From NCBI GenBank assembly GCA_024278315.1, contig JAJRTL010000076.1, positions 1-63,060 of the forward strand: a DNA stretch of 63,060 bases. The letters run 5' to 3'. Made by a program: the position numbers and the translations under genes. A model generated the notes under the pieces. It was not told the origin of the DNA. It searched no databases and worked only from the letters and a program-made list of their open reading frames with translations. Origin of the DNA: Planctomycetota bacterium. Its GTDB lineage: Bacteria > Planctomycetota > UBA1135 > GCA-002748355. Positions 2,553-63,009 of the stretch are shown piece after piece. Every line of letters begins with the position of its first letter. The first letter of the stretch is position 1.

Positions 2553-4460
2553 CTAGTGGATCCGCAGACCCTCGAAACGGATGGGTCGCATGGGGGCTCC
2601 GGCAGGTAATTGGAACCCCATACGGCCTTGGAGTCGACGACGTTCCAGGGGAATGATACGAGGTGCGAAGGGTCCGACACGAAGGGAGAGATCGTGATCC
2701 CGGAGGAGGAGAGTCACAGGGATAGAACTCTTGCCGTAGCTCGAGGGCATCTTGGCATACATCTCGAAGATGACGATAGGGCTCCCGTCTTTCCGCTGCT
2801 CCAGGATGACCACGATGTACCCTTTCATCGGTTTGAAGCGGAGGACGAATCGGTCTTTTCCGGAGCGTTGACCAAAAACGAAGTCGAGGATCGCAGGTCG
2901 AGGATCGATGGAAAACTCTACCAGACATCCGGCTGCGGGCATGGAGGGAAGGAGAAGGAGGGAGGACCCCTTGTTCCGGACAAAAGGACTCACGAGTGTA
3001 CCCTTCTGATAGTTCCAGGCACCCAGCCCTCCCAGGGTCTGTGCCCTGGCGAACAGGTTCTTGACTGAGGGGAAGAGCTGATCGATCTTCTTCTTGTCTT
3101 CGACGATCGCATCCGCATCCACCACCTTCGGACTCTTTACCGGAGCAACAGATCGACACATCGTGCGATACCTGGCCGCGAGGATCATGCGCCCATCTTT
3201 CTCTTCGGCGTGAGCCAAGGCCGCCAGACGTTTTGCCGCACTCTTTCGCGCGGAGAGAGTTGCCCCCAGAAGTCGATCGACCTTCTTGAGACTCGCCATC
3301 TGCCTCTTGCGGATATCTTCTTCGTTCGACGACAAGGAAGCAAGGATACCTACGCGCTCGAGATAGGCCTTGGCCAGCCAGTCGATCCTCCAAGCTGCCG
3401 CGCGCTCGGAAGACGCGAAGAGCACGTCGATTTCATGCCCTTGGAGCTTTCGCGGAAGCTCCGCCATGATCGACTTCCCGGCCAGCAGCGGCCGAATCCT
3501 GAAGTTGCGGAAGGACGTGGCCAGCTTGCTCGAGGTGAAGAACACATGCTCGAAGCAGAGGTGCCCATCCATCGTCGCGTTGGCAACAGGCAGGACACGA
3601 AGAGGTCCGTCGCCGATCGCGATGCTGAGCTCGGAGGATCGAACCTCGATGTGGAGGGGGAGCCAGGCGTCGACGTCCACATCCTCCCAAAAGCTGCCCT
3701 GCGGTGAGTAGCTGACCCTCGGTGGTGGGTTGTAGCGAAAGCCACCCATGTCGAGTCTCTTTTCACCGGGCCAACGACGCATTTCCGCCAACACATAGAC
3801 CTGTTTGCTATCCCCCGACCCCAGAAAGATGCCTGCCTTGGATTCCGCCGCGGGCAGACGCATCTCGCAGTCGATCATGAGTCCGGGCATGCTGGCCAAC
3901 CTGCTCTCGAGGATGGCCGGAGACTTCGATGTCGCATTGGGCCCGGGTGATACGAGCATGCCCTTGTGCCATCGGAAGGCGTTGCCTCCTTCTCGCTGAT
4001 AGCTATCGTTGGCCAGCGCCCCCCGCACGATTTTCTCGAAAGGCAAGCGGCCTTCACCGGCGTCGAAGAGGCAGGTCACCAGCGCACGAGTTCCGTCGAC
4101 TGACCTCTCGATACCTTCCGCCATCAGTAGCAGCTCGAGGGCATCGGCCCAGTGCTTCTGACGCATGTGGCTGATGCCTACCTTGCGGAGACTCCGTGCC
4201 GCACCGCTCAAGAGTTTGCGTTGCTTCTTCTCCTTGGGAGAAAACTTGGAGAGCAGGGCCTGGATCTGGGCCTGCGCCTCTTTGTCCTTGCGGAGCAGAG
4301 CTTCGTCGTATGCCGCACGAAGCAAATAGACAACGCGGTCCAACTGGTTGGCCTTCTCGGCCACAGTGGCAGCGGCGCGCAGCTCCTGAACCCTATCCCC
4401 TTGCAGGGGAGGGGCTGCTGGACAGGACAGGATGGCCAAGGCCAATGGGTGCAAGAACAT
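2553..4460 (-). CDS. secreted hypothetical protein with two internally repeated beta-rich modules (DUF1080/concanavalin-like by eye)
   Basis: 635-aa ORF with a hydrophobic N-terminus (MFLHPLALAILSCPAAPP). Two similar modules each begin with a G(M/T)LVSP segment. No recognisable catalytic motif. Confidence 0.6.
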   Translation of the reverse strand: MFLHPLALAILSCPAAPPLQGDRVQELRAAATVAEKANQLDRVVYLLRAAYDEALLRKDKEAQAQIQALLSKFSPKEKKQRKLLSGAARSLRKVGISHMRQKHWADALELLLMAEGIERSVDGTRALVTCLFDAGEGRLPFEKIVRGALANDSYQREGGNAFRWHKGMLVSPGPNATSKSPAILESRLASMPGLMIDCEMRLPAAESKAGIFLGSGDSKQVYVLAEMRRWPGEKRLDMGGFRYNPPPRVSYSPQGSFWEDVDVDAWLPLHIEVRSSELSIAIGDGPLRVLPVANATMDGHLCFEHVFFTSSKLATSFRNFRIRPLLAGKSIMAELPRKLQGHEIDVLFASSERAAAWRIDWLAKAYLERVGILASLSSNEEDIRKRQMASLKKVDRLLGATLSARKSAAKRLAALAHAEEKDGRMILAARYRTMCRSVAPVKSPKVVDADAIVEDKKKIDQLFPSVKNLFARAQTLGGLGAWNYQKGTLVSPFVRNKGSSLLLLPSMPAAGCLVEFSIDPRPAILDFVFGQRSGKDRFVLRFKPMKGYIVVILEQRKDGSPIVIFEMYAKMPSSYGKSSIPVTLLLRDHDLSLRVGPFAPRIIPLERRRLQGRMGFQLPAGAPMRPIRFEGLRIH

Positions 4461-4509: not shown

Positions 4510-4586
4510 CCCGAGTACATGGGGTCAGACCCTATTTCTCCGGGTGAAACACCCGGAGAAATAGGGTCTGACCCCATGTACTCGGG
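4510..4586. repeat. 37-bp perfect inverted repeat with a 3-nt spacer, intergenic
   Basis: CCCGAGTACATGGGGTCAGACCCTATTTCTCCGGGTG-aaa-CACCCGGAGAAATAGGGTCTGACCCCATGTACTCGGG. It lies between the stop of the 4606-6726 gene and the start of the 2553-4460 gene, both on the minus strand. Confidence 0.95.
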
Positions 4587-4605: not shown

Positions 4606-6726
4606 TTAGAGGGGGATGGCGCCTCCGTAGGGGACGCCGGTGAGGTAGGCGACGTCGCGCTTCCAGGTGGTCAGGTCGTCGAGGTGCAAACCGCTGAGGC
4701 TTGTGTGGCCGCAGGCACGGGCCAGCGCACTCATAAGGTGAGCGGTGGCGTCGAAGAAGCGTTGGAGGCCCTGGGCGGCGCTTTCGACGTCGATGAGTTG
4801 GCGCAGGGCTTCGTCCTGCGTGGCGATGCCGGTGGGACAGGTGTTGTTGTTGCACTGGCGCGCACCGATGCAGCCGATGGCCTGGATGGCCGAGTTGGAG
4901 ACTGCGATACCGTCTGCGCCGAGGGCGAGGGCCTTGGCGAAGTCCGCGGGTGTGCGCAGGCCACCGGTGATGAAGAGCGTCACTCCCTTGGCACCTGCCT
5001 GGTCGAGGTGGCGGCGCGCCCGTGCCAGAGCTGGCAGCGTGGGCACCGAGATGTTGTCTCGGAAGATCAGCGGAGCCGCGCCCGTGCCCCCACCGCGGCC
5101 ATCCAGGATGATGTAGTCGCCCCCCAGCTCGAGCGCCGCATCGATGTCCTTCTCGATGTGCTGCGCGGAGAGCTTGACGCCGACCGGGATACCGCCGGTC
5201 TTCTCCCGCACCTCGGCGGCAAAGTCACGAAACTGCGAGACCTGCGTCCACTCGGGAAAGCGCGCCGGCGAGATCGCATCCTGGCCGGCCTCGAGCCCGC
5301 GCACCCTGGCGATCTTCTCCGTAACCTTGGCACCCGGAAGATGACCGCCTGTGCCCGTCTTGGCTCCCTGCCCGAACTTGAAGTGGAAGGCCTGCACCTT
5401 CTGGATCTGTTCCCAAGCAAAGCCGAAGCGCGCCGACGCCATCTCATAGAAGTATCGACTGTTGGCCTCCTGCTCCTCGGGCAGCATCCCACCCTCTCCC
5501 GAGCAGATCCCGGTCCCAGCCAGCTCGGCTCCCTTGGACAGGGCCGTCTTGGCCTCGAAGGACAGCGCGCCGAAACTCATGTCCGAGACGATGATGGGAA
5601 TCTCGAGCTCGAGCGGCTTCTGTGCGCCTGGGCCGACGACCAGCCGCGTGTCGACCGCGACGTCATCGAGCTCGGGCACCTTGTAGAGCTGCGCGGTCAC
5701 GAACTGCAGGTCGTCCCAGACGGGCAACTCGTAGTAGGGCACCCCCATGGATCCCATCTTGCCGTGGCCACCCACCTGGGTCAGACCGTACTTGGCGAGG
5801 TGACGGATGTAGTCGTTGTGGGGTTCTTCACGGTTGACCGGTCCGGCATCCTCTGCGCCCGCTCCGTCCGCGGCAGTGCCTGCGCCTGTGGCCTTCCCGC
5901 GAAGCTCCGTGCGCGACACCATGACCTCGTCCCATGGAGCCTCGACCTCCACGCCGAGCACACGCCCATCGGCAGCCTTGACTACAGGCTTGCCTGCCTC
6001 GAGTGTCGCCGTTACCGAAACGCCCAGGACCTCTACAGCGAGCGGGCTCTTCTTCTCGAGCTCACCCAGCGTGGCCACACGAATCTTGTCATCATCGCGG
6101 TACTTGGCATGCCAGTGCTTCCCATCGCAGAAGGGCTTGTTCTTGCTGCTGCCGCAGCGGCACAGCGCGTAGTGCTCGCGGGAGACCTGGTCGAACCAGG
6201 GCGCCGCCCCGAAAGACACCGATCCCTTGACGCGGAAGGGCCCATGCCTCTCGATCTCGATCTCGGGTGCGCTGTCCAGATCCCGATGCTCCACGCCTTC
6301 GATCGTGTAGCTCAAGGCACCCGAGGGACAGACCTCACAGATCTCGATGATCTCTTCCACCGAGGCATTGTCGGGATGGATCCATGGCTGTTGATTGTGG
6401 TTGAACACGCTCGCTAGCTTCTCGGTGCAATCGCCAGCATGTGAGCAGATGCCACGGTTGTCGTGGATCGTGATCTGCTCGCCCACATAGGTCTTGCGAT
6501 CGTCGCGTTCGACACCACCGTCGTTCTTGCTCGTGAATCCGACCGAGGCATGCGTGCCATCACAGAAGGGTCGCTTCTTGCTTTGGCCGCAGCGGCACAG
6601 CGCCATCACGGCTTCACTGGCAATGGCCTCGCCATCGAAACCCTTGAACTCGGTGAGGTTCTTGACGATGAGCGGGCCATTCTCGGGTGCCGCGATCTGC
6701 GGATCTCTCTCGGACTTCTGGGACAT
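4606..6726 (-). CDS. fusion protein: two CDGSH iron-sulfur domains, a Cys-rich ferredoxin-like segment and a glutamate-synthase-type FMN domain (GltB domain 2 family)
   Basis: CRCGQSKKRPFCDGTH and CRCGSSKNKPFCDGKH match the CDGSH signature. The C-terminal ~430 aa carry GltS FMN-domain segments (SDMSFGALS, GEGG, FGQGAKTGTGGHLPG, DGRGGGTGAAP). Start set at MSQKSERD (ATG 6726), which has an AGGA-containing upstream sequence. Confidence 0.85.
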   Translation of the reverse strand: MSQKSERDPQIAAPENGPLIVKNLTEFKGFDGEAIASEAVMALCRCGQSKKRPFCDGTHASVGFTSKNDGGVERDDRKTYVGEQITIHDNRGICSHAGDCTEKLASVFNHNQQPWIHPDNASVEEIIEICEVCPSGALSYTIEGVEHRDLDSAPEIEIERHGPFRVKGSVSFGAAPWFDQVSREHYALCRCGSSKNKPFCDGKHWHAKYRDDDKIRVATLGELEKKSPLAVEVLGVSVTATLEAGKPVVKAADGRVLGVEVEAPWDEVMVSRTELRGKATGAGTAADGAGAEDAGPVNREEPHNDYIRHLAKYGLTQVGGHGKMGSMGVPYYELPVWDDLQFVTAQLYKVPELDDVAVDTRLVVGPGAQKPLELEIPIIVSDMSFGALSFEAKTALSKGAELAGTGICSGEGGMLPEEQEANSRYFYEMASARFGFAWEQIQKVQAFHFKFGQGAKTGTGGHLPGAKVTEKIARVRGLEAGQDAISPARFPEWTQVSQFRDFAAEVREKTGGIPVGVKLSAQHIEKDIDAALELGGDYIILDGRGGGTGAAPLIFRDNISVPTLPALARARRHLDQAGAKGVTLFITGGLRTPADFAKALALGADGIAVSNSAIQAIGCIGARQCNNNTCPTGIATQDEALRQLIDVESAAQGLQRFFDATAHLMSALARACGHTSLSGLHLDDLTTWKRDVAYLTGVPYGGAIPL

Positions 6727-6764
6727 GAGTAGGTTCCTTGGGGAGACGATCGAAGAAGACGCTG

Positions 6765-6795
6765 GCACATGTGTGGGGCTGGCAACGCACATGTG
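6765..6795. promoter_or_regulatory. two copies of the palindrome-containing motif GCACATGTG, 22 bp apart, in a divergent promoter region
   Basis: GCACATGTG occurs at 6765-6773 and 6787-6795 (core CACATGTG is self-complementary). The sites lie between the divergent starts at 6726 (minus) and 7051 (plus). Confidence 0.3.
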
Positions 6796-7050
6796 AACAC
6801 GGCCACTCCGGCCCATCCAACCGATTCTGATCCAACAGGGATGGAGGACACCCGAGCCATGGCTCTGCTCATACTTCTACAGCGCCGTTGGGTGCCAGAT
6901 CCTCTCGCTGTCCGGGATTTTCAACAAATCTGGCTGCCGTCCTCTTCGCCCTGGCCTCCGGAGGCAGGGCCCCATGAATCGCTCGGAGCGATTTCCGTAG
7001 GATTCCTGAAAACCCTGTCGGGTGGGGGAACGCCCTGTCGGGAGGGGGGC

Positions 7051-14687: not shown

Positions 14688-16337
14688 ATGACACTGAGCA
14701 CTCGACTTTTCTCTCTCTCCGGCACAGCGCTCCTGCTCTGCTGCTCTCTGGGCCTCTCGTCGCCCCAACTCCCTGCACAGCAAGGGGGTTACTCGCTCTT
14801 CGGCGCTGGCTGCGGCCCCACAACGGCCATCAGCGGCTCGACCAACAACATGACCTGCGCCAGCCCGGCCGGCGCGAGGGCCAACGGCAAGAACTACTAC
14901 GCCATCTCCTGTAGAGAGAAGGTCACCAAGACCCTCTCCAGCGTGACCTTCCGGATGCAGGGGACCCGACCCACGTCGATGCTTCTGGAGCTCTGGCTGG
15001 CGGACAAGACGGGTCGGCCCTCCAAGCGTCTGCGCACCGGACCCATGGTCGTCGGCCGCAACTACGGGAGCTACACGGGCCGATTCTCACCCTACAAGAT
15101 GGCAGCTGGCCAGAACTACGCGATCGTGATCTTCGGGGCCCGGGACATCGTGCTGCCCCAGTGCAAGACCGGCAACCTCGTCGCTGGCTACACCAGGGTC
15201 GTGCCCGGGACCTGGAAGGTCTCCGTCGCTCGCTGGGCCTACCGGGTGAACGCGGGCAGCGTGACCACAGTCCCTACGCTCCGCAACAGCGCGGTGCCCC
15301 TCATCGGTCGTACGATGTCGATCCAGCTCGCCAATGCCCGGCCCAACACGATCTCCTGGCTCAACTTCGGCGATTCCGCCACACGATGGGGACCCTTGTC
15401 GCTGCCACTGCACCTCTCTGCTTTCCAGGCATCGGGCTGATATCTGCGGACATCGCAGCTCTTCAGCGTGGTGCTTCCCACGAACTCCCTCGGTCGGTCT
15501 TCTCTCTCCATCCGCGTGCCCAACCACACCTCCCTCATAGGCAAGCGCTTCTACAACCAAGGCATGATCTATGACAAGGCAGCCAACAGCTTGGGATTCT
15601 CCTTCACCAATGCAGGCTCGGGCCTGGTCGGCAAGCCCTGCGGCAACAGTGCCTCCCGGACCGCCGGGGGCACACTGCGCTTTGCACTGCCACGCGTCAA
15701 CTTCTTCGGCTTCCCAGGACTCAGCATCGCTGGAAACTACACCGGGACCAAGAGGAAGATCTGCTGCACGTCCAACGGCCCACAGGCCTGCTACTACTCC
15801 GGCCGCGGCACGATCACAGGCCAGGTCGGACAGTTTTCGATTCCCGTCACCGCGCTCGGTAAGGTCGTCGACGACATCAATGCCAAGGTATGCACCTTGC
15901 TCAAGGCATCTTCGTCAGGCACGATCACCTGCAGCTCCCTGATGGGCATCAGTGTCAACGGCATCAAGGTCAACGCCGGCGTCAATCTTCTGCGCAACGA
16001 CTGCAATCGGACCAACAGCTACTCGTCCCGCGGATCCATCCAGTTTCCAGGCGGCGTCTTCGGTGGCGTCGACACGACAGCATCGGTCAAGCTTCCCATT
16101 ATCGGCAAGTTCGGATGGAAGTTCAAACTCGGCGTCACGGCGACGCCCGCGGGCTCCTGGGTCGTCTCCGCCAACCGCGCGTGGATGACCATCAAGATCA
16201 CCAGCGTGAGCGTCACAGGCACGACGACGATCCCCGTCCTCAACAAGAAGGTCAACTTCAACTTCAAGATCAACACTCCGAGCCTGACCTTCACGACTCC
16301 CGCCGTCAGAATGCCGACCATCACGATCGGCTGCTAA
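14688..16337 (+). pseudogene. secreted paralog-family protein A, interrupted by one in-frame TGA (15438-15440)
   Basis: ORFs 14688-15440 and 15468-16337 share a frame and are separated only by the TGA. The junction aligns without gaps to the intact paralog 50176-51309. N-terminal signal peptide MTLSTRLFSLSGTALLLCCSLGLSSPQLPAQQ. Confidence 0.7.
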
Positions 16338-16397
16338 CCCGAACGATTCATGACCTCGATGCGTCTGACGGCGTCTTTCGGTCCAGGACCGCGAACC
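16338..16397 (-). mobile_element. solo right-type terminus (60 bp) of the foldback element family
   Basis: CCCGAACGATTCATGACCTCGATGCGTCTGACGGCGTCTTTCGGTCCAGGACCGCGAACC equals the reverse complement of the right 60 bp of the full copies except one base. It starts at the base after the TAA stop (16335-16337). Confidence 0.75.
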
Positions 16398-16441
16398 ATG
16401 ACGGTATCGCGGTTACCACACCGGGAGTAGGTGGATCGTTC

Positions 16442-16527
16442 ACCACGGAAGAGCCGAAGGGCACGAAGGCTGGAACCCGAGAGCGATCTCGCTTCCTCTC
16501 CTTCGTGTCCTTCGTGCGCTTCGTGGT
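16442..16527. repeat. imperfect long hairpin built from CACGAAG-type motifs
   Basis: ACCACGGAAGAGCCGAAGGGCACGAAGG (16442-16469) faces CCTTCGTGTCCTTCGTGCGCTTCGTGGT (16500-16527). Same motif class as the hairpins at 39048-39084 and 62852-62921. Confidence 0.5.
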
Positions 16528-16708
16528 AACATCCTTCTTCCAATCCGATCGTTGGTCCCACATCGAGATCCTGGAGCAACTCCCTCTGTCCGCCAGCGTC
16601 CGTCTCCTTCCTTTCCCCATTCTCCTCTCTCGCCTGTTCGATGTCGATTCATCGCCAAACACGAACGAGACTCCATGATGTGCCTGCGTGCACATACGGG
16701 ACTCAAGG

Positions 16709-19249
16709 ATGAGTGACGGGAAGACCCGATTGCGGCTCGAAGAGTTGTTCTTCGCCGCTGCCGAACTCGAGGGAGAAAAACGCGCTCGCTACGTACAAGA
16801 CCTGTCGGACTCCGACGCGGCTCTCCGGCCCGAACTCAAACGCCTCCTCCAACTCGACGACCAAGACAGCAGCCCCATCGACACACCGGTGCTGGACCAG
16901 CTCGAAGAACGGGAGCCCAGACCTGATCCAGCCGAGTGGATGCCGCAACGTATCGGCCCATACGAGGTGCAAGGTGTCCTCGGGGTCGGTGGCATGGGGA
17001 TCGTCTACGAAGCACGGCAAGACTCGCCCGGACGCCTGGTCGCACTCAAGTTGCTCCGACCCGAATATGGCGGAAGCATGGTGCAGAAGCGCTTCGTTCG
17101 CGAAGGGGAGATTCTCGCCAGATTGAAGCATGAGAGCATCGCTCACATCTACGAGGCAGGACTGGCCGAGGTTCTATGGCCCGGCGGAGCCACGAGCGAG
17201 CAGCCCTTCCTCGCGATGGAGCTGGTCCGCGGCCTGCCGGTGCACGAATACAGCGTGCAACAAGACCTGAACACCAGGCAGCGTGTCGCGCTGATCACCC
17301 GTATCGCCGACGCGATCGAGGCAGCACACCAGGCCGGGATCGTCCATCGCGATCTCAAGCCCGGCAACATCCTGGTGACCTCCGCAGGCGTGCCCAAAGT
17401 GCTCGACTTCGGCGTTGCCCGTCTCCTCGACGAGGAGCAGCCAAACCTGACGCTCCAGACACATACGGGTCAGGTCATCGGTACGATCGCCTACATGAGT
17501 CCTGAGCAGATCACGGGCGATGTCTCCCTCATCACGGCGCGCAGCGATGTCTACTCCCTGGGTGTGCTTGCCTACGAACTGCTGACCGGTGTCCTGCCCC
17601 ATCAGGTCGGGCGACTGTCGATCCCCGAGGCCGCCCGCATCATCCAGGACGAGGAGCCGACCCGGCTTGGCCATCTCAGCGCAGAGCTACGCGGCGACCT
17701 GGAGACCATCCTCGGCAAGGCGCTCGAAAAAGAACCCTCGCGGCGCTACGCGTCGGCCGGTCCGCTCGCCGAAGATCTACGCCGCCACCTTTCCAACGAG
17801 CCGATCCTCGCCCGCCCGGCCACGCGCCTCTACCGCATGCGCAAGTTCACACGCCGCCATCCAGGCCTCGTCTACGGCACGAGTGCAACGATGCTCATGC
17901 TCGTGCTCGGCGTCGTGTTCAGCACGATGTTCGCCCTGCGCGCGGCCGCGGGCCGAAAGGACGCGGAGACCGCCCTGGTCAAAGCCCGACAACAGACACG
18001 CAAGGCCGAGGAGATCCGCGCCTTCCTCGATCGCATGTTGACCGCGGTCGATCCCGATCTCAGCCAAGGCAAGGAGGTCACCGGCGTCGAAATCGTCGAC
18101 AGCGCAGCCAAACAACTCGATGCGAGGCCTCCCGAGGATCCCGAGGTCGAAGCCGCCATCCGCAGCACACTCGGAGACACCTACCGCGTGCTCAGCAAGT
18201 ACAGCAAGGCCAGGCCACAGGTAGAGCGCGCCCTCGCCCTCCATCTTCGCATCCACGGAGAGGACCACGAGGACACGATCAGTGCACGGCGGGCTCTCGG
18301 CCTTTTGATGCTCGATCTACAGGATCTGCCGCGCGCCGAAGCTGAACTCCAACGATGCAGATCCTACTACGAATCCCAAGGGGACGAGGGCCTGCGTGGC
18401 CTTTCGATCACGCTATTGCTGTTGGCGAGCGCCCTGATCGATCGCAGGCAGTTCCGGGAGTCCGAAGCCGTGGCCAGGCTGGCCCTCGAGAAGGCTGCGC
18501 CCCTCGTGGACAATCAACTACTCAGGGCGGACGGCCTCGAGTTCATCGCCATGAGCCGGGTCTGGCGAGGCGCCTACAAGGGGACGGAGGAGATGTACCA
18601 GCAAGCCCTGCGCCTGCGCCAGGAGCACGCCGGAGGCTTGACCACCAAACAGATCTCGCTCCGGAGCCTCATCGCCAACCTCTACGAACTCCAAGGCCAG
18701 CATGCCAAGGCCGAGAAGCTCTACGTGCAGATGCTCGCGGACGCCCGCAAACTCACAGGCAAGCACAGCAAGATCATCGCAGGCCTCCTGCTCAACCTTT
18801 CCACCCTGCGCTCCACCCTCCACAGATACCGGGAGGCGGCAGAGGCCGCCCGCGAGTGCATCCAGGTCGCCACCAAGGTCTACGGACCCGAAGTCAGGAT
18901 GCTGGCCGATGCCCACTGGACCCTGGCCAACGCCCTTTCCACCTTCAACAAGAACACCGAAGCTGTCCATCACTTCACCCTCGCCCTCGGCATCCTGGAC
19001 AATAGCTCCAACAAGGGTCGACTTCCCGCCAAGGGCTTCGTCCACCTCCGCCTCGCAGGCCTCTACCTGGGCCTCGGCGACACAGCCAAAGCCCTGCACC
19101 ATGCCCAGAGCGCCTTCGACATCCACAAACAGCTCTACCAACTCGACCACGACAGCACCCGCGCCTCCGCTTCCATGCTTGCCGACATCTACACCCAGAC
19201 CCAACAAGCCCAAGAAGCCACCAAGTGGCGCAAGCTCAGCCAGAAGTAG
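16709..19249 (+). CDS. Ser/Thr protein kinase with a transmembrane segment and C-terminal TPR repeats (second copy of this architecture)
   Basis: Kinase motifs GVGGMGIVY, VALK, HRDLKPGNIL, DFG and SPEQ, TM LVYGTSATMLMLVLGVVFSTMFAL, then TPR-like repeats. Start at MSDGKTRL (ATG 16709); GTG 16688 is an alternative. Confidence 0.85.
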   Translation: MSDGKTRLRLEELFFAAAELEGEKRARYVQDLSDSDAALRPELKRLLQLDDQDSSPIDTPVLDQLEEREPRPDPAEWMPQRIGPYEVQGVLGVGGMGIVYEARQDSPGRLVALKLLRPEYGGSMVQKRFVREGEILARLKHESIAHIYEAGLAEVLWPGGATSEQPFLAMELVRGLPVHEYSVQQDLNTRQRVALITRIADAIEAAHQAGIVHRDLKPGNILVTSAGVPKVLDFGVARLLDEEQPNLTLQTHTGQVIGTIAYMSPEQITGDVSLITARSDVYSLGVLAYELLTGVLPHQVGRLSIPEAARIIQDEEPTRLGHLSAELRGDLETILGKALEKEPSRRYASAGPLAEDLRRHLSNEPILARPATRLYRMRKFTRRHPGLVYGTSATMLMLVLGVVFSTMFALRAAAGRKDAETALVKARQQTRKAEEIRAFLDRMLTAVDPDLSQGKEVTGVEIVDSAAKQLDARPPEDPEVEAAIRSTLGDTYRVLSKYSKARPQVERALALHLRIHGEDHEDTISARRALGLLMLDLQDLPRAEAELQRCRSYYESQGDEGLRGLSITLLLLASALIDRRQFRESEAVARLALEKAAPLVDNQLLRADGLEFIAMSRVWRGAYKGTEEMYQQALRLRQEHAGGLTTKQISLRSLIANLYELQGQHAKAEKLYVQMLADARKLTGKHSKIIAGLLLNLSTLRSTLHRYREAAEAARECIQVATKVYGPEVRMLADAHWTLANALSTFNKNTEAVHHFTLALGILDNSSNKGRLPAKGFVHLRLAGLYLGLGDTAKALHHAQSAFDIHKQLYQLDHDSTRASASMLADIYTQTQQAQEATKWRKLSQK

Positions 19250-27194: not shown

Positions 27195-27242
27195 GAAGTT
27201 CTCAGTGGGCAGGAGTGGAAGGTCGACCTGTAGACAAGCTAA

Positions 27243-27462
27243 CCCGGACTATTCATGAGATCGTTGTGAGCAAATGCGAGATCGGCTGCGCCGATCTCGC
27301 ATTTGCGGTCTGACGAGCGCATTTCGAGTTCAGGACGGCTGCGCGAGATATGAGGCGACCCAAGAGGGTCGTCGAATCGAAGCCATGCCGAGCGAACCCA
27401 TAGGTTCGCGGTCCTGGACCGAAAGACGCCATCAGACGCATCGAGGTCATGAATCGTTCGGG
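27243..27462 (+). mobile_element. foldback MITE-like element, full copy 1 (220 bp)
   Basis: Left end CCCGGACTATTCATGAGATCGTTG; right end reverse complement CCCGAACGATTCATGACCTCGATG. Flanked by CTAA on both sides (27239-27242 and 27463-27466). Perfect internal 17-bp hairpin at 27270-27306. Confidence 0.85.
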
Positions 27463-29028: not shown

Positions 29029-29312
29029 GAACCCGACCGTCGACGCCAATCGCTCCCATGCGGTCACCGACGCAATGCTGGATGCATGATCTTGCATTCC
29101 ACAGTCGTCGTCACGGTGGCAATCTCCTCGATGCCATCGTGACGACGCATGTACAGCGCCCTCCTTCTGGATAGGGGTCACCTTCCGACTGTGCAGGGCG
29201 AGCAACCGGGCTATGATAGGCGCCAAGAATCGTGATGCTCGCGACTGTCCCCTGGCGGTCACGGACGACGCAACACGCCTCGCTACTCCTCCCCTCGCAT
29301 GGAGCCTCTCAG

Positions 29313-30476
29313 ATGTTCAAGGTCTACCTCCTCTCTACGCTCGCAGTCACTGCATCACTGGGCCTCTCCCAGGCCAGCACGACACTCCCCAAAGGGTTCG
29401 ACAAGACCCAGGGCACGTCCTATTTCTGGAGTGGATTCAGCGTCGCACCAACAACAAATCTCGACTACAAGTACTACACTTCGAGAAGCGTCTTCCTCTA
29501 CGACTCCTCGACATTCCCTTGGAATCCGAAGAGTGCCAAGGTCATCGACAAGATCAGCTTCCGGCGGTCGCATTCGAATCCCGCTGCGACAGCTGCGGCC
29601 CACAAGGCCAAGTGGGTCGTCATCATATCGACGAGCAACCAACCGGCTCATCGTCCGAACACGAAGTTCGATGACAACCATGGCAGCAACAAGAAAGTCG
29701 TGTTCGGAGCCAAGGGCCCCCAGGAGGTGAAGTTCCTGGCCACGCCACAACCCAAGGCCTTCACGACGGCACCTTTCGATGTGACGGTGGATATCACCAA
29801 CTTCCTGGTGCTTCCCAACACCAAGACCCTCGTCATCGAAATCCGCAGCTACAGCAGTGACGTTCGTTTCGGTGACTGGTATGTGGATTCGGCCATCTAC
29901 CCGGGCACCGGCTACAACGGTGGTGGCTACACGCTGTTCTACTCGACGCACTGTCTCGCCCCTCGGGCTTTCTACTCGGCCCGTGCCAGCTATCTCAATG
30001 GCCACCTCGCTCACATCTGGAGGACCGGTCGGAAAGGCGGCTTGCCGGTCATCGGCCTGGCAGGGACTCGAATGACGACAGGTATCAAGGTGCCCAACAC
30101 GACCTGCGAGTGGTACATCAACCCGATGATCACAGCGGTCACCCTGACAGCCAATGGTCCCGGGCACGCCACGAATCCTGGTCAAGGCACTGCATACCTG
30201 GACTGGGGCCCCATCCCACCTATCGCCTCCCTGGTCGGAATCAAGGTGGCTCACCAGGCTCTCATCATCGACCCCAGCGCCAACAAGCTAGGCATCGGCA
30301 TCACCCGTGGCGGTGAGACATCGATTGGAACCGCGTACGACAACAAGTACGTCAACGTGGGGGCCACCTACTCCTTCGGCCCACAGAACCACCGCTACAA
30401 CAAGTTCATGGACGCTGACAAGGAAACCTACGGACGCTACTTCTACCGTCGGGTCCCCATCATCAACATCCAGTAG
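29313..30476 (+). CDS. secreted paralog-family protein B
   Basis: Start at MFKVYLLSTLAVTASLGLSQAS (ATG 29313). It shares the family layout: an N-terminal LPKGF..T.G segment, a conserved Cys pair (STHCLAP ... NTTCEWY) and a C-terminal Q.LIIDPSANKLGI..T.GG module. Confidence 0.75.
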   Translation: MFKVYLLSTLAVTASLGLSQASTTLPKGFDKTQGTSYFWSGFSVAPTTNLDYKYYTSRSVFLYDSSTFPWNPKSAKVIDKISFRRSHSNPAATAAAHKAKWVVIISTSNQPAHRPNTKFDDNHGSNKKVVFGAKGPQEVKFLATPQPKAFTTAPFDVTVDITNFLVLPNTKTLVIEIRSYSSDVRFGDWYVDSAIYPGTGYNGGGYTLFYSTHCLAPRAFYSARASYLNGHLAHIWRTGRKGGLPVIGLAGTRMTTGIKVPNTTCEWYINPMITAVTLTANGPGHATNPGQGTAYLDWGPIPPIASLVGIKVAHQALIIDPSANKLGIGITRGGETSIGTAYDNKYVNVGATYSFGPQNHRYNKFMDADKETYGRYFYRRVPIINIQ

Positions 30477-30562
30477 CTGTCCGCGGGCAGGGAGTGGGGA
30501 CAGCAGTGAGGGGGGAGGTTGACCGGGGTTTCGAAGGTACCCTTGTAAGAAAGGTAGGTTAG

Positions 30563-30782
30563 CCCGGACTATTCATGAGATCGTTGTGAGCAAAATCGAG
30601 ATCGGCGCAGCCGAGCTCGATTTTGCGGTCTGACGAGCGCATTTCGAGTTCAGGGCGGCTGCGCGAGATATGAGGCGACCCAAGAGGGTCGTCGAATCGA
30701 AGCCATGCCGAGCGAACCGATAGGTTCGCGGTCCTGGACCGAAAGACGCCATCAGACGCATCGAGGTCATGAATCGTTCGGG
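30563..30782 (+). mobile_element. foldback MITE-like element, full copy 2 (220 bp)
   Basis: Same termini as copy 1. Flanks TTAG (left) and TTGG (right). The internal hairpin at 30590-30626 carries two compensatory base-pair swaps relative to copies 1 and 3. Confidence 0.85.
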
Positions 30783-48443: not shown

Positions 48444-48548
48444 AGCCTGAAAGAGAGAAGGATGGGAGAAGCTGTGGTGCCCCACACTCATCGCTCACCC
48501 CATCCCACGCTCATTGGCCTCATGGCTCACCGGGCTCATGCAGCATAA

Positions 48549-48767
48549 CCCGGATGATTCATGACCTCGTTGTGAGCAAATGCGAGATCGGCTGCGCCGA
48601 TCTCGCATTTGCGGTCTGACGAGCGCATTTCGAGTTCAGGACGGCTGCGCGAGATATGAGGCGACCCAAGAGGTCGTCGAATCGAAGCCATGCCGAGCGA
48701 ACCGATAGGTTCGCGGTCCTGGACCAAAAGACGCCGTCAGACGCATCGAGGTCATGAATCGTTCGGG
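48549..48767 (+). mobile_element. foldback MITE-like element, full copy 3 (219 bp)
   Basis: Termini CCCGGATGATTCATGACCTCGTTG and reverse complement CCCGAACGATTCATGACCTCGATG. Flanks ATAA / ATAG. One base shorter than copies 1 and 2 (CAAGAGGTCG versus CAAGAGGGTCG). Confidence 0.85.
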
Positions 48768-48775
48768 ATAGGAAG

Positions 48776-48868
48776 GTGCTGAACTCACTGCCCAGGACAT
48801 CTTGCGATGTCATCCACGCGCGTGCTGGCATGATCGAACCATCGTGAACTCACTTCTCTCTCACGGAG
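48776..48868 (+). repeat. second interspersed repeat (about 93 bp), copy X
   Basis: GTGCTGAACTCACTGCCCAGGACATCTTGCGATGTCATCCACGCGCGTGCTGGCATGATCGAACCATCGTGAACTCACTTCTCTCTCACGGAG matches the reverse complement of 62919-63009 with few mismatches. Confidence 0.75.
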
Positions 48869-48985
48869 CCACAGAGAAGACACGGAGTGCATCAAGCAGC
48901 CCCGCCATTCAAGGCGACCTTTGAGGCCGCCTCCGTGCCCCCTGTGAGAGAGGAGGAGTCCATCGAACGACAGGGCCCTCCAGGA

Positions 48986-50092
48986 TCACTTCTTCGTGAT
49001 CTGGGTCACGAGACCAACACCGCGATCGACGTGCCCAACAGAGGAGTTGGAGCTGTTGGACAACCTGTAGACCAGGGTGGAATCGAGACCAGTCTGGCCG
49101 AGGTTTCTACCCATCCGGATCTGCACCCCATTGGAAAGTGCGATTGGGAAGGCAGGATTGACGCGCTTGTCCAAGGCCAACCATTGGAAGTACATCGTCT
49201 TGTTCACCAAGGACTTCAAACCAGGAAGTAGCAAGTCCAACTGGGCCGAGCCTTGGCTGCGTGTCTGAGCCGTAAAGGTCATGTCGTAGCTGGCGTAGAG
49301 CGAGCATCATGTCAACCCGAGTCCAGAGAGACTCAGCGGGAGCTTGATCCCACTCCACGTGCTGTTGCTTGCCCCCAGGATGCCGACAACGGGGCTGAGA
49401 GAAGGACCCTCATAGAGCAGCAAGGAGAGAGGGGTTGAGCTTCCGGGATTGGTGGCGATCGCGTAGGCGCGATTCTTGCCCAAGGGACAGGCGGTACCAA
49501 ACGCCTTGGCATCGCCATGATCGATCTGGCTCCTCACGGCATCCACCCAGTAGCCATGGATGCGATACCGGGATTCGTAGACGTAATGATCGATCGCCAG
49601 GTTGGGGCCCGTGAAGGCAAAGGGGAAATCGAGGGGAAACTTGATGTCGAACCCAGGCAAGCCCGAGGCAGGATTCTTGAGAACCGGGAAGTTGACTCGC
49701 TTGGCGAGGAACACGGTCCGCAGCGTGTTCAGCTTCCCGGTTCCAGGCTTGAGAAACCTCTCCATCTTGGTCGACGTCGTGGGCCAGAAGTTTCCCATGC
49801 GCACGGTCCAGATGGGAGTTGTGGACCGCCTCAAGCTGAGTGTCGGGAAGGCCTTCCCGTCTCTCCGGTAGGCGATGGCTGTGATGGAGCTGTTGAAGGT
49901 CAGCTTGCCGGCCAACAGGACAGAGCCGATGTACTGGGTCATGCGGCAACGGTCGTAGCCGAAGGGTCGCAGCTCCAGGGTGTTGCCCTCCTTCGTTGTA
50001 TTCGCTGAAGGAATGACGAAGGAACTGCTCGTCTGGGAAGGAAGGGATGCGGCGAGGAGGCCAGCCGCTGCAAGAAGGCTCGTGCTGCGCAT
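48986..50092 (-). pseudogene. secreted paralog-family protein D, interrupted by one in-frame TGA (49307-49309)
   Basis: ORFs 49307-50092 and 48986-49282 share a frame. The junction GLGLT*CSLYASYDM aligns to SLGLKGCSLQASMDI of the adjacent intact paralog. Signal peptide MRSTSLLAAAGLLAASLPSQ. Confidence 0.7.
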
Positions 50093-50175: not shown

Positions 50176-51309
50176 CTACTTGAGGGTGAACTGGGTCACC
50201 AAGGCCATCCCTGGGTCCACAAATCCATACAACCCGTTCACCAGGTTGTTCAACCCAATGCCGTATACCAGGGCAGCATCCACGTTGCCGATATTACCGA
50301 TCGTCGCCCCGGAGCGGACCTCGACACCGTTGGAGAGGGTCAATGGGAACGCAGGACTGATCCTCTTGTCCAGATTGATCCACTGATTCCAGAAGGTCAC
50401 GTTGGCGTGCCTGGCGGTTGGAGGAAGTGGAATCGTGAGGTTGGCACGCCCACTCTCGTTGGTCGGCACGGGATAGAAGATATCCATGCTGGCCTGAAGC
50501 GAACAACCTTTGAGGCCCAAGGAGGACAGGTCCCAGGGGAGCTTCACAGCACCCCAACTCGTCTTGCTGACACCGATCACACAGAGAGCGGCGCTCTGCT
50601 TGGGACCATCGAATTCATAGAGCTCGATGGCTCCTCCACCGGGATTCGAGGACAGGGCATACGCGCGATTGAGACCGGGAGGGCAGGACGAGCCATAGGT
50701 CTTGGAGCTACCCTGATCGACCTTGCCACGATGGGCATCGATGAAGTAGCCGAAGATCTGATTGCGGCTCTCATAGACCGAATGGTCGATGACAAGATTC
50801 GTGCCGTTGTGCACGAAGGGGATGTCCAGAGGGAACTTGAGTGTAAAAGCGGGTAGGACCCCCTTGGTGTGCGTCAGGTTCGGGAATTTGACTCTCTTTG
50901 CCGTAAAGGCGGTCCGGACGATGGGACCTCGGCCACGCCCCCCGGACGGACGCGTATGGAACGGCAAGGGTTTCGATGCACTCGTCGTCATGTTGCCCAT
51001 GCGAATCGTCCACGTGGGGTCAGTAGTACCTCTCCGGGGAGGCCTGACCATGGTGAGCCCCACGAAGGTCGAGCCATCCCTTCGATACGCCAAGGCCGTG
51101 ATGGTATTCCCCTTGGCAATTGCCCCCTTGAGCATCGAGGCCCCAATGTGCTGCGCCACACGCACGCGGTTGTAGCTGAAGGGGCGCATCTCGAAGGCGT
51201 TGCCCTCCACCTTGGCGAGGCTTTGGGGGATCGTCACCGTCTTGGTTTGGGCCAGAAGCGCTGGGCAGAACACCAGCAGAGAGACAGCAGGAAGGATGGC
51301 AGGCTTCAT
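50176..51309 (-). CDS. secreted paralog-family protein E (intact reference member)
   Basis: Start at MKPAILPAVSLLVFCPALLAQ (ATG 51309). Collinear with paralog D over its whole length. Contains the GC motif and the C-terminal FWNQWINLD...LSNG module. Confidence 0.8.
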   Translation of the reverse strand: MKPAILPAVSLLVFCPALLAQTKTVTIPQSLAKVEGNAFEMRPFSYNRVRVAQHIGASMLKGAIAKGNTITALAYRRDGSTFVGLTMVRPPRRGTTDPTWTIRMGNMTTSASKPLPFHTRPSGGRGRGPIVRTAFTAKRVKFPNLTHTKGVLPAFTLKFPLDIPFVHNGTNLVIDHSVYESRNQIFGYFIDAHRGKVDQGSSKTYGSSCPPGLNRAYALSSNPGGGAIELYEFDGPKQSAALCVIGVSKTSWGAVKLPWDLSSLGLKGCSLQASMDIFYPVPTNESGRANLTIPLPPTARHANVTFWNQWINLDKRISPAFPLTLSNGVEVRSGATIGNIGNVDAALVYGIGLNNLVNGLYGFVDPGMALVTQFTLK

Positions 51310-51603
51310 GTGGAATATCCAGGGGGATGGCTGGGGGGGGCGAGCCAGGATCTGGCTCGGAATCGCCTCGTCAGGCTGTCCCTCCAGCCTATGCTCGATG
51401 GAAGAGAGATCAAGCACCCCAGAAGAGGCCCTGTCACAGGTCTGCAAGGACCGCTCTGGCTTGCCTGAAGGGCCCCTACAGAATAGGATCTTCCGCCCGA
51501 TTTCCCCGAATTCAGCTCCGCTGGATGGATGGAGACGTTCCGGTCGAACGATACGGCCAGATCACAAGGAGTCGGCCCCAAACGGACCGGTGGAGAAGCA
51601 GTG

Positions 51604-62851: not shown

Positions 62852-62921
62852 GAGACACGGAGGCGGTCTTGCTCAATGGTCGTCTTGAATGATGGGACTT
62901 CTGGATGGATCTCCGTGTCTC
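62852..62921. repeat. 11-bp perfect inverted repeat of the CACGGAG motif class
   Basis: GAGACACGGAG (62852-62862) pairs with CTCCGTGTCTC (62911-62921). Flanking TCTCTCAC / GTGAGAGA extend the pairing with a bulge. Confidence 0.6.
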
Positions 62922-63009
62922 AGTGAGAGAGAAGTGAGTTCACGATGGTTCGATCACGCCAGCACGCGCATGGATGACATCGCAAGATGTGGTGCAGTGA
63001 GTTCAACAC
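62919..63009 (-). repeat. second interspersed repeat, copy Y (inverted relative to 48776-48868)
   Basis: The reverse complement GTGTTGAACTCACTGCACCACATCTTGCGATGTCATCCATGCGCGTGCTGGCGTGATCGAACCATCGTGAACTCACTTCTCTCTCACTGAG matches copy X closely. Confidence 0.75.

Follow-up and report, generated by a model that had tools for sequence, protein, structure and literature searches.

The DNA analysed here, a 63,060-nt stretch from a Planctomycetota bacterium (the window; 60% G+C), holds four members of one protein family, namely genes A, D and E and a fourth gene at 29232-30476 (Table 1). Gene A occupies a frame of 549 codons (14688-16337) whose sole interruption is a TGA at 15438-15440, in the context GCA TCG GGC TGA TAT CTG CGG. 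An earlier reading of the window from its letters alone (the sequence-only reading) had described ORFs 14688-15440 (250 aa) and 15468-16337 (289 aa) as sharing one frame, parted only by this TGA and followed by about 290 further open codons; the sequence confirms this, with 298 open codons before a TAA at 16335-16337. P0001-P0003, which are fused homologues of 550-552 aa, align through their residues 1-250 with the upstream part. In the downstream part the first start codon in frame is a GTG at 15468, nine codons past the TGA.

Paralog D (50092-48989, minus strand) carries one in-frame TGA of its own, at 49307-49309, which the sequence-only reading had not recorded; an in-frame ATG lies nine codons past it. 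The motif reads LGLT*CSLYAS in paralog D (asterisk, stop) versus LGLKGCSLQAS in paralog E, and the codons are ACA TGA TGC in paralog D, AAG GGC TGT in the related locus L004 and AAA GGT TGT in paralog E. Because all relatives carry Gly-Cys at the motif, the paralog D stop is placed in the Gly column, one column before the gene A stop. Two of the window's four family members are interrupted, both at this Gly-Cys motif, and their TGAs are the only two internal stops in 36 gene models comprising 16,541 codons. NCBI annotates P0006 and P0011 as separate proteins.

Table 1 Coordinates of the family members, their in-frame stops and associated features in the window
Feature	Position	Strand	Remarks
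Gene A, upstream part	14688..15437	+	250 codons; signal peptide ending ...LPAQQ
Module common to genes A, D and E	15261..15653	+	Family-profile match; gene A TGA in its middle
Gene A, in-frame TGA	15438..15440	+	Cys column of the Gly-Cys motif; orthologue codons TGC, TGT, TGC
Gene A, downstream part	15441..16337	+	298 codons and TAA; without a signal peptide of its own
MITE-like repeat arm	16335..16397	+	Abuts gene A; first three bases are the gene A TAA stop; in the spacer replacing the ECF sigma gene
Ser/Thr kinase with TPR repeats	16709..19249	+	Pfam Pkinase and TPR; conserved neighbour of gene A in L001 and L002
Fourth family member	29232..30476	+	Intact; motif reads T-C; profile match 29325-30395, E=7e-29
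Paralog D, downstream part	48989..49306	-	105 codons and TGA; without a signal peptide
Paralog D, in-frame TGA	49307..49309	-	Gly column, directly before the motif Cys
Paralog D, upstream part	49310..50092	-	261 codons, signal peptide; NCBI protein P0006
Paralog E	50176..51312 (ORF to 51447)	-	Intact, in tandem with paralog D; motif LGLKGCSL
MITE-like repeat copies	27240-27462, 30560-30782, 48546-48768		
MITE-like repeat arms	16335-16397, 31793, 40909, 48351, 61666, 63000		

Conservation across the stops and the surrounding locus

The frame of gene A is conserved through its TGA. Positions 202-332 of the 365-position family profile match the common module on both sides of the stop (domain E=1.9e-33), and the gapless alignment with paralog E claimed by the sequence-only reading was recovered by tblastn at 35% identity over 71 aa (E=2e-6). 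Relative to its nearest orthologue, P0001, gene A is 65% identical after the TGA and 50% before it, with changed-to-silent codon ratios of 105:69 after the stop and 126:46 before, and the codon-usage score of the downstream part equals or exceeds that of the upstream part. The sequence-only reading had remarked that a long intact downstream frame in GC-rich DNA is not expected for an old pseudogene. That frame is weak evidence alone, since a 262-aa ORF (15890-16678) is also open in another frame of this stretch, whereas the 65% identity to the orthologue marks the downstream part as one that, by this comparison, is or recently was coding. Given this downstream conservation and the codon-usage score, gene A carries one lesion and is intact in all other respects.

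A query with the read-through product of gene A returned only 4 homologues among 5.8 billion proteins, so that full-length genes of the gene A type are great rarities. Three of the homologues are fused (550-552 aa; 58%, 51% and 45% identity), and all four (41-58% identity) have Cys in the column of the TGA, as do 132 of the 154 aligned family members; the assignment of the gene A TGA to the Cys column by the sequence-only reading thus held. The three homologues that were read as DNA use TGC, TGT and TGC at this position, each a single change from TGA, as had been proposed. The fourth, P0004, was read as protein only and is an apparently frameshifted homologue on a contig labelled 1x, and it is therefore uninformative on decay in the family. 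An AlphaFold2 model of P0001, built from a 5-sequence alignment, reached a pLDDT of only 53 and gave no usable fold for the C-terminal 240 residues of gene A.

Paralog D is conserved in the same way. Its read-through product aligns gaplessly with the intact 368-aa P0005 at 76% identity over all 367 residues, and the changed-to-silent codon ratios against its nearest orthologue are 25:39 after the stop and 62:106 before.

The locus around gene A has changed in other ways too, through loss of a sigma factor gene and insertion of repeat elements. An ECF sigma factor gene (PF07638) sits between the gene A orthologue and the Ser/Thr kinase in three other loci (L001, L002 and L003). Neither this gene nor a remnant of it was found at 16338-16708 of the window, where a 370-nt spacer with a repeat element replaces it after gene A; the kinase is intact, being 78% identical to the kinase of L001 and 49% identical to that of L002.

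The repeat element belongs to a MITE-like family of ~223 nt with inverted ends (TAACCCGAACGATTCATGACCTCG...), present in nine or more copies, full or partial, across the 63 kb, all of them intergenic. The TAA stop of gene A comes from one of these copies; two others occupy the 640-nt spacer that follows paralog D, a position at which only 39 nt are present in L004. Another dispersed repeat, separate from this family, forms an 81-nt inverted pair (48797-48877 and 62910-62990; 94% complementary) with its arms 14 kb apart. Elsewhere in the window, the minus-strand genes 2553-4460 and 4606-6816 are separated by a perfect inverted repeat of 37 nt (4510-4586; loop of 3 nt), which is likely to be either a strong terminator or a repeat element. 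The protein encoded at 4606-6816 joins two CDGSH iron-sulfur fingers to a divergent 4Fe-4S domain and a glutamate-synthase-type FMN domain.

A large family of secreted all-beta proteins

The family of secreted proteins to which gene A and paralog D belong is large and evolves fast. A profile search built on paralogs D and E retrieved 7,716 clusters at 50% identity among 1.84 billion representatives, and the module at profile positions ~195-333 forms the C-terminus of many proteins, up to ~980 aa long, that otherwise differ from one another. Pfam and NCBIfam hold no family for genes A, D and E, a profile search of PDB sequences returned no relative, and a Foldseek search of the PDB with the paralog E model gave generic beta-sandwich hits only, none at E<=0.001. 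We describe the family as large, uncharacterised, secreted all-beta proteins with a covarying Cys pair. With the exception of P0006 from the window itself, all close homologues of D and E are fused proteins of 365-389 aa; the locus scan was done with a closer sequence set (A5).

The motif Cys covaries with an upstream Cys (FGxxCP), the two columns being C/C in 110 and G/N in 15 of the 154 aligned members. Because of this covariation with a second Cys, we infer that the motif Cys is half of a structural disulfide rather than a redox-active site. In the AlphaFold2 model of paralog E (pLDDT 94.4, all-beta), the motif is interior and at least six strands follow it. Judged against this model, each stop halves one beta-sandwich module and removes, or separates off, the putative disulfide partner. 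Of the 150 best representatives of the family, none but P0006, from the window itself, terminates at the motif.

Probable young nonsense mutations and a possible consensus error

We consider it probable, at roughly six in ten, that both TGAs are ordinary stops which arose by single substitutions in otherwise intact genes, and that A and D are very young pseudogenes or truncated alleles. In gene A, TGC or TGT would have become TGA by one base change, and paralog D would most simply have gone from GGA to TGA; with TGC and GGA as the ancestral codons, each substitution would be a G:C-to-T:A transversion. Translation would end at the UGA, leaving an N-terminal fragment with half a beta-sandwich module and without the Cys that pairs with the upstream Cys. 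This fragment would probably misfold, and the downstream parts would not be made, save by background read-through. A and D would then be very young pseudogenes or truncated alleles in the sampled population. The analysis shows directly the stops themselves, the sense codons of relatives, the ordinary use of TGA as a terminator, the want of a SECIS signal and the placing of each stop within the module; we further infer that neither substitution is a consensus error, that the fragments lack function and that a disulfide joins the two Cys.

The arrangement resembles young nonsense-mutation pseudogenes in bacterial paralog families in that each frame has a single premature stop, the gene A stop is one base from the orthologues' sense codons, the orthologues of gene A are fused and intact, the remainder of each gene is conserved and the neighbourhood has changed, with a lost sigma gene and inserted repeat elements. 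The stop of paralog D is one step only from an assumed GGA; its nearest relatives use GGC and GGT. Neither relaxed constraint downstream nor any further lesion was found in A or D, the downstream parts being at least as conserved as the upstream parts. This lack of decay means that the stops are very recent or that the frames are still translated, and a pseudogene origin therefore fits only a very recent event.

Unlike in that class of pseudogenes, two family members were hit in adjacent columns of one motif. Enumerating all single-base changes that create a stop, we found that 3 of 100 in paralog D fall within one column of the gene A stop and 2 of 141 in gene A fall within one column of the paralog D stop. 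The coincidence therefore has a chance probability of ~1-3%, judged post hoc, and is a mild oddity that counts against independent mutations. No mechanism linking the two sites was found when we looked for a DNA repeat or template copy, a shared RNA structure and recurrence in other genomes. We rejected a diversity-generating retroelement, as the window contains no DNA-level repeat copy of the motif region. A-to-I editing by TadA, which needs an A followed by CG, was rejected on sequence context, as the A of neither TGA precedes CG.

The main rival to young nonsense mutations is a consensus or base-call error, in which the true codons would be TGC or TGT in gene A and GGN in paralog D and the stops would stem from sequencing, assembly or polishing of this metagenome-assembled genome. 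The sequence-only reading had named four options and preferred none of them; two of these, a very recent nonsense mutation and a sequencing error, fit a single-base difference in a gene whose orthologues are fused and intact and whose downstream part is conserved. An error would account for stops that each lie one base from a sense codon and for perfectly preserved downstream frames; the collections searched contain no second assembly of the organism that could confirm the bases, and each protein cluster is a singleton. Outside the two stops, however, the window is clean: genes of 853-999 aa are uninterrupted, Pfam matches of full length occur, the 16,541 codons contain no other internal stop, and random errors would not be expected to hit one motif twice. 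Nor could mis-mapped reads from paralogs have given the observed bases, no family codon that we read having a Gly codon with T as its first base or a Cys codon with A as its third, and paralog D needs two changes from the GGC or GGT of its relatives. Because the window is clean and paralog reads are unable to supply these bases, we regard an error as a minority possibility, of the order of one chance in several, and rate it below young nonsense mutations.

Possible decoding of the UGA codons

The remaining explanations require that the UGAs be decoded or that the halves function separately. Programmed or tolerated read-through, in which near-cognate decoding or a suppressor tRNA would yield a predominant short form and a smaller amount of full-length protein, would explain the conserved downstream frames and the coincidence of both stops at one motif. 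TGA-T is an efficient termination context in E. coli. A T follows both internal stops, and the same TGA-T context ends five genuine genes in the window. No stimulatory RNA structure follows either TGA: the 60 nt past each stop fold no better than shuffled sequences (z-scores 0.0 and 0.24) and, set against the corresponding stretches at 175 ordinary Cys codons of the window, more weakly than 60% and 76% of them. The window contains no suppressor tRNA, the short form would be half a domain, and the stop is conserved in no relative; on these grounds we hold read-through to be improbable.

We give similarly little credence to the broader proposition that both UGAs are a site-specific recoding or regulatory device of this lineage rather than accidents. 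Such a device could insert selenocysteine (Sec) next to, or in place of, the disulfide Cys of secreted proteins through a non-canonical signal, or it could use a controlled stop to produce short and long forms of the protein.

Canonical selenocysteine recoding appears less probable still. Here SelB and tRNA-Sec would read UGA as Sec, giving full-length secreted proteins in which a selenylsulfide replaces the disulfide. The sequence-only reading had raised this option from the classic Sec/Cys pattern at gene A, whose UGA does stand opposite Cys in all four homologues; the downstream frames of gene A and paralog D are conserved, two UGAs share one motif, and some Planctomycetes have the full Sec machinery (PMC4807772), so that the phylum alone excludes nothing. 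In these respects gene A, with its UGA opposite Cys and its continuing frame, is like bacterial selenoprotein genes such as fdhF, which combine a Sec-UGA with a bSECIS hairpin. The likeness does not extend to paralog D, whose UGA replaces a residue that is Gly, not Cys, in all relatives.

The hairpin signal also fails to distinguish these stops from ordinary codons. We implemented the published constraints of the bSECIS model ourselves, requiring a loop of 3-9 nt with a G in its first two positions, a stem of 4-16 bp, a distance of 16-37 nt from the UGA and a minimum free energy of -7.5 kcal/mol or lower (PMC13188914). Under these constraints, no candidate hairpin follows the paralog D TGA. 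Gene A has a single candidate, a 5-bp hairpin of -5.6 kcal/mol, which is at background level, as candidates likewise follow 61% of the 173 ordinary Cys codons compared; neither gene has the hairpin expected of a selenoprotein gene. A hairpin CUGCG-N5-CGCAG after the gene A TGA was rejected as a SECIS because it begins 3 nt past the stop; its arms are set by the Leu-Arg-Thr-Ser-Gln codons and are also present in the orthologue at L001, which has TGC.

Comparison with other genomes points the same way. The three gene A homologues read as DNA have sense codons (TGC, TGT and TGC) in the column of the stop, and the D/E relatives in six other genomes are intact at the motif, with Gly-Cys, so that TGA recurs in no homologue examined from another genome. 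The sequence-only reading had named both the bSECIS search and inspection of the orthologue column as checks on recoding, and each came out against it. Furthermore, known bacterial selenoproteins are mostly redox in function (PMC4807772), whereas the Cys here, judging by its covariation with another Cys, looks like the structural half of a disulfide in a secreted beta-sandwich protein and not like a redox-active one. No tRNA-Sec was found within the window, where Rfam matched two ordinary tRNAs only.

A deliberately split gene, whose halves would be made as separate proteins and then assemble, is the most doubtful of the alternatives: in-frame starts nine codons past each stop and the separate NCBI entries for P0006 and P0011 would suit it, but the family is secreted and the downstream halves lack a signal peptide, the split interrupts a single beta-sandwich module, with loss of the motif Cys, and no stand-alone halves occur in other genomes, the homologues of gene A being fused except for the apparently frameshifted P0004. 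A stop within the module, together with downstream parts that lack a signal peptide, argues equally against a useful short form, and we found neither self-contained halves nor a split conserved elsewhere.

Genome-wide reassignment of UGA (tables 4 and 25) would likewise place UGA within conserved frames, including that of paralog D at a Gly column, but it is excluded: TGA is the window's most frequent ordinary stop, ending 26 of 46 rough gene calls, it is absent from the interior of long genes (up to 999 codons) and occurs internally only twice in 16,541 codons, and the DNA is 60% G+C.

Meaning for the family

The in-frame stops are thus real in the sequence and ordinary in kind, and genes A and D are most likely young pseudogenes rather than selenoprotein genes. 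For annotation, both ORF pairs should be recorded as interrupted genes and not as four proteins, and an in-frame TGA opposite Cys is insufficient to call a selenoprotein. The finding would gain wider interest only if site-specific recoding were true. If the stops are real, they would mark only the recent knock-out, in an uncultured planctomycete, of two members of a large secreted family, which is ordinary gene turnover.
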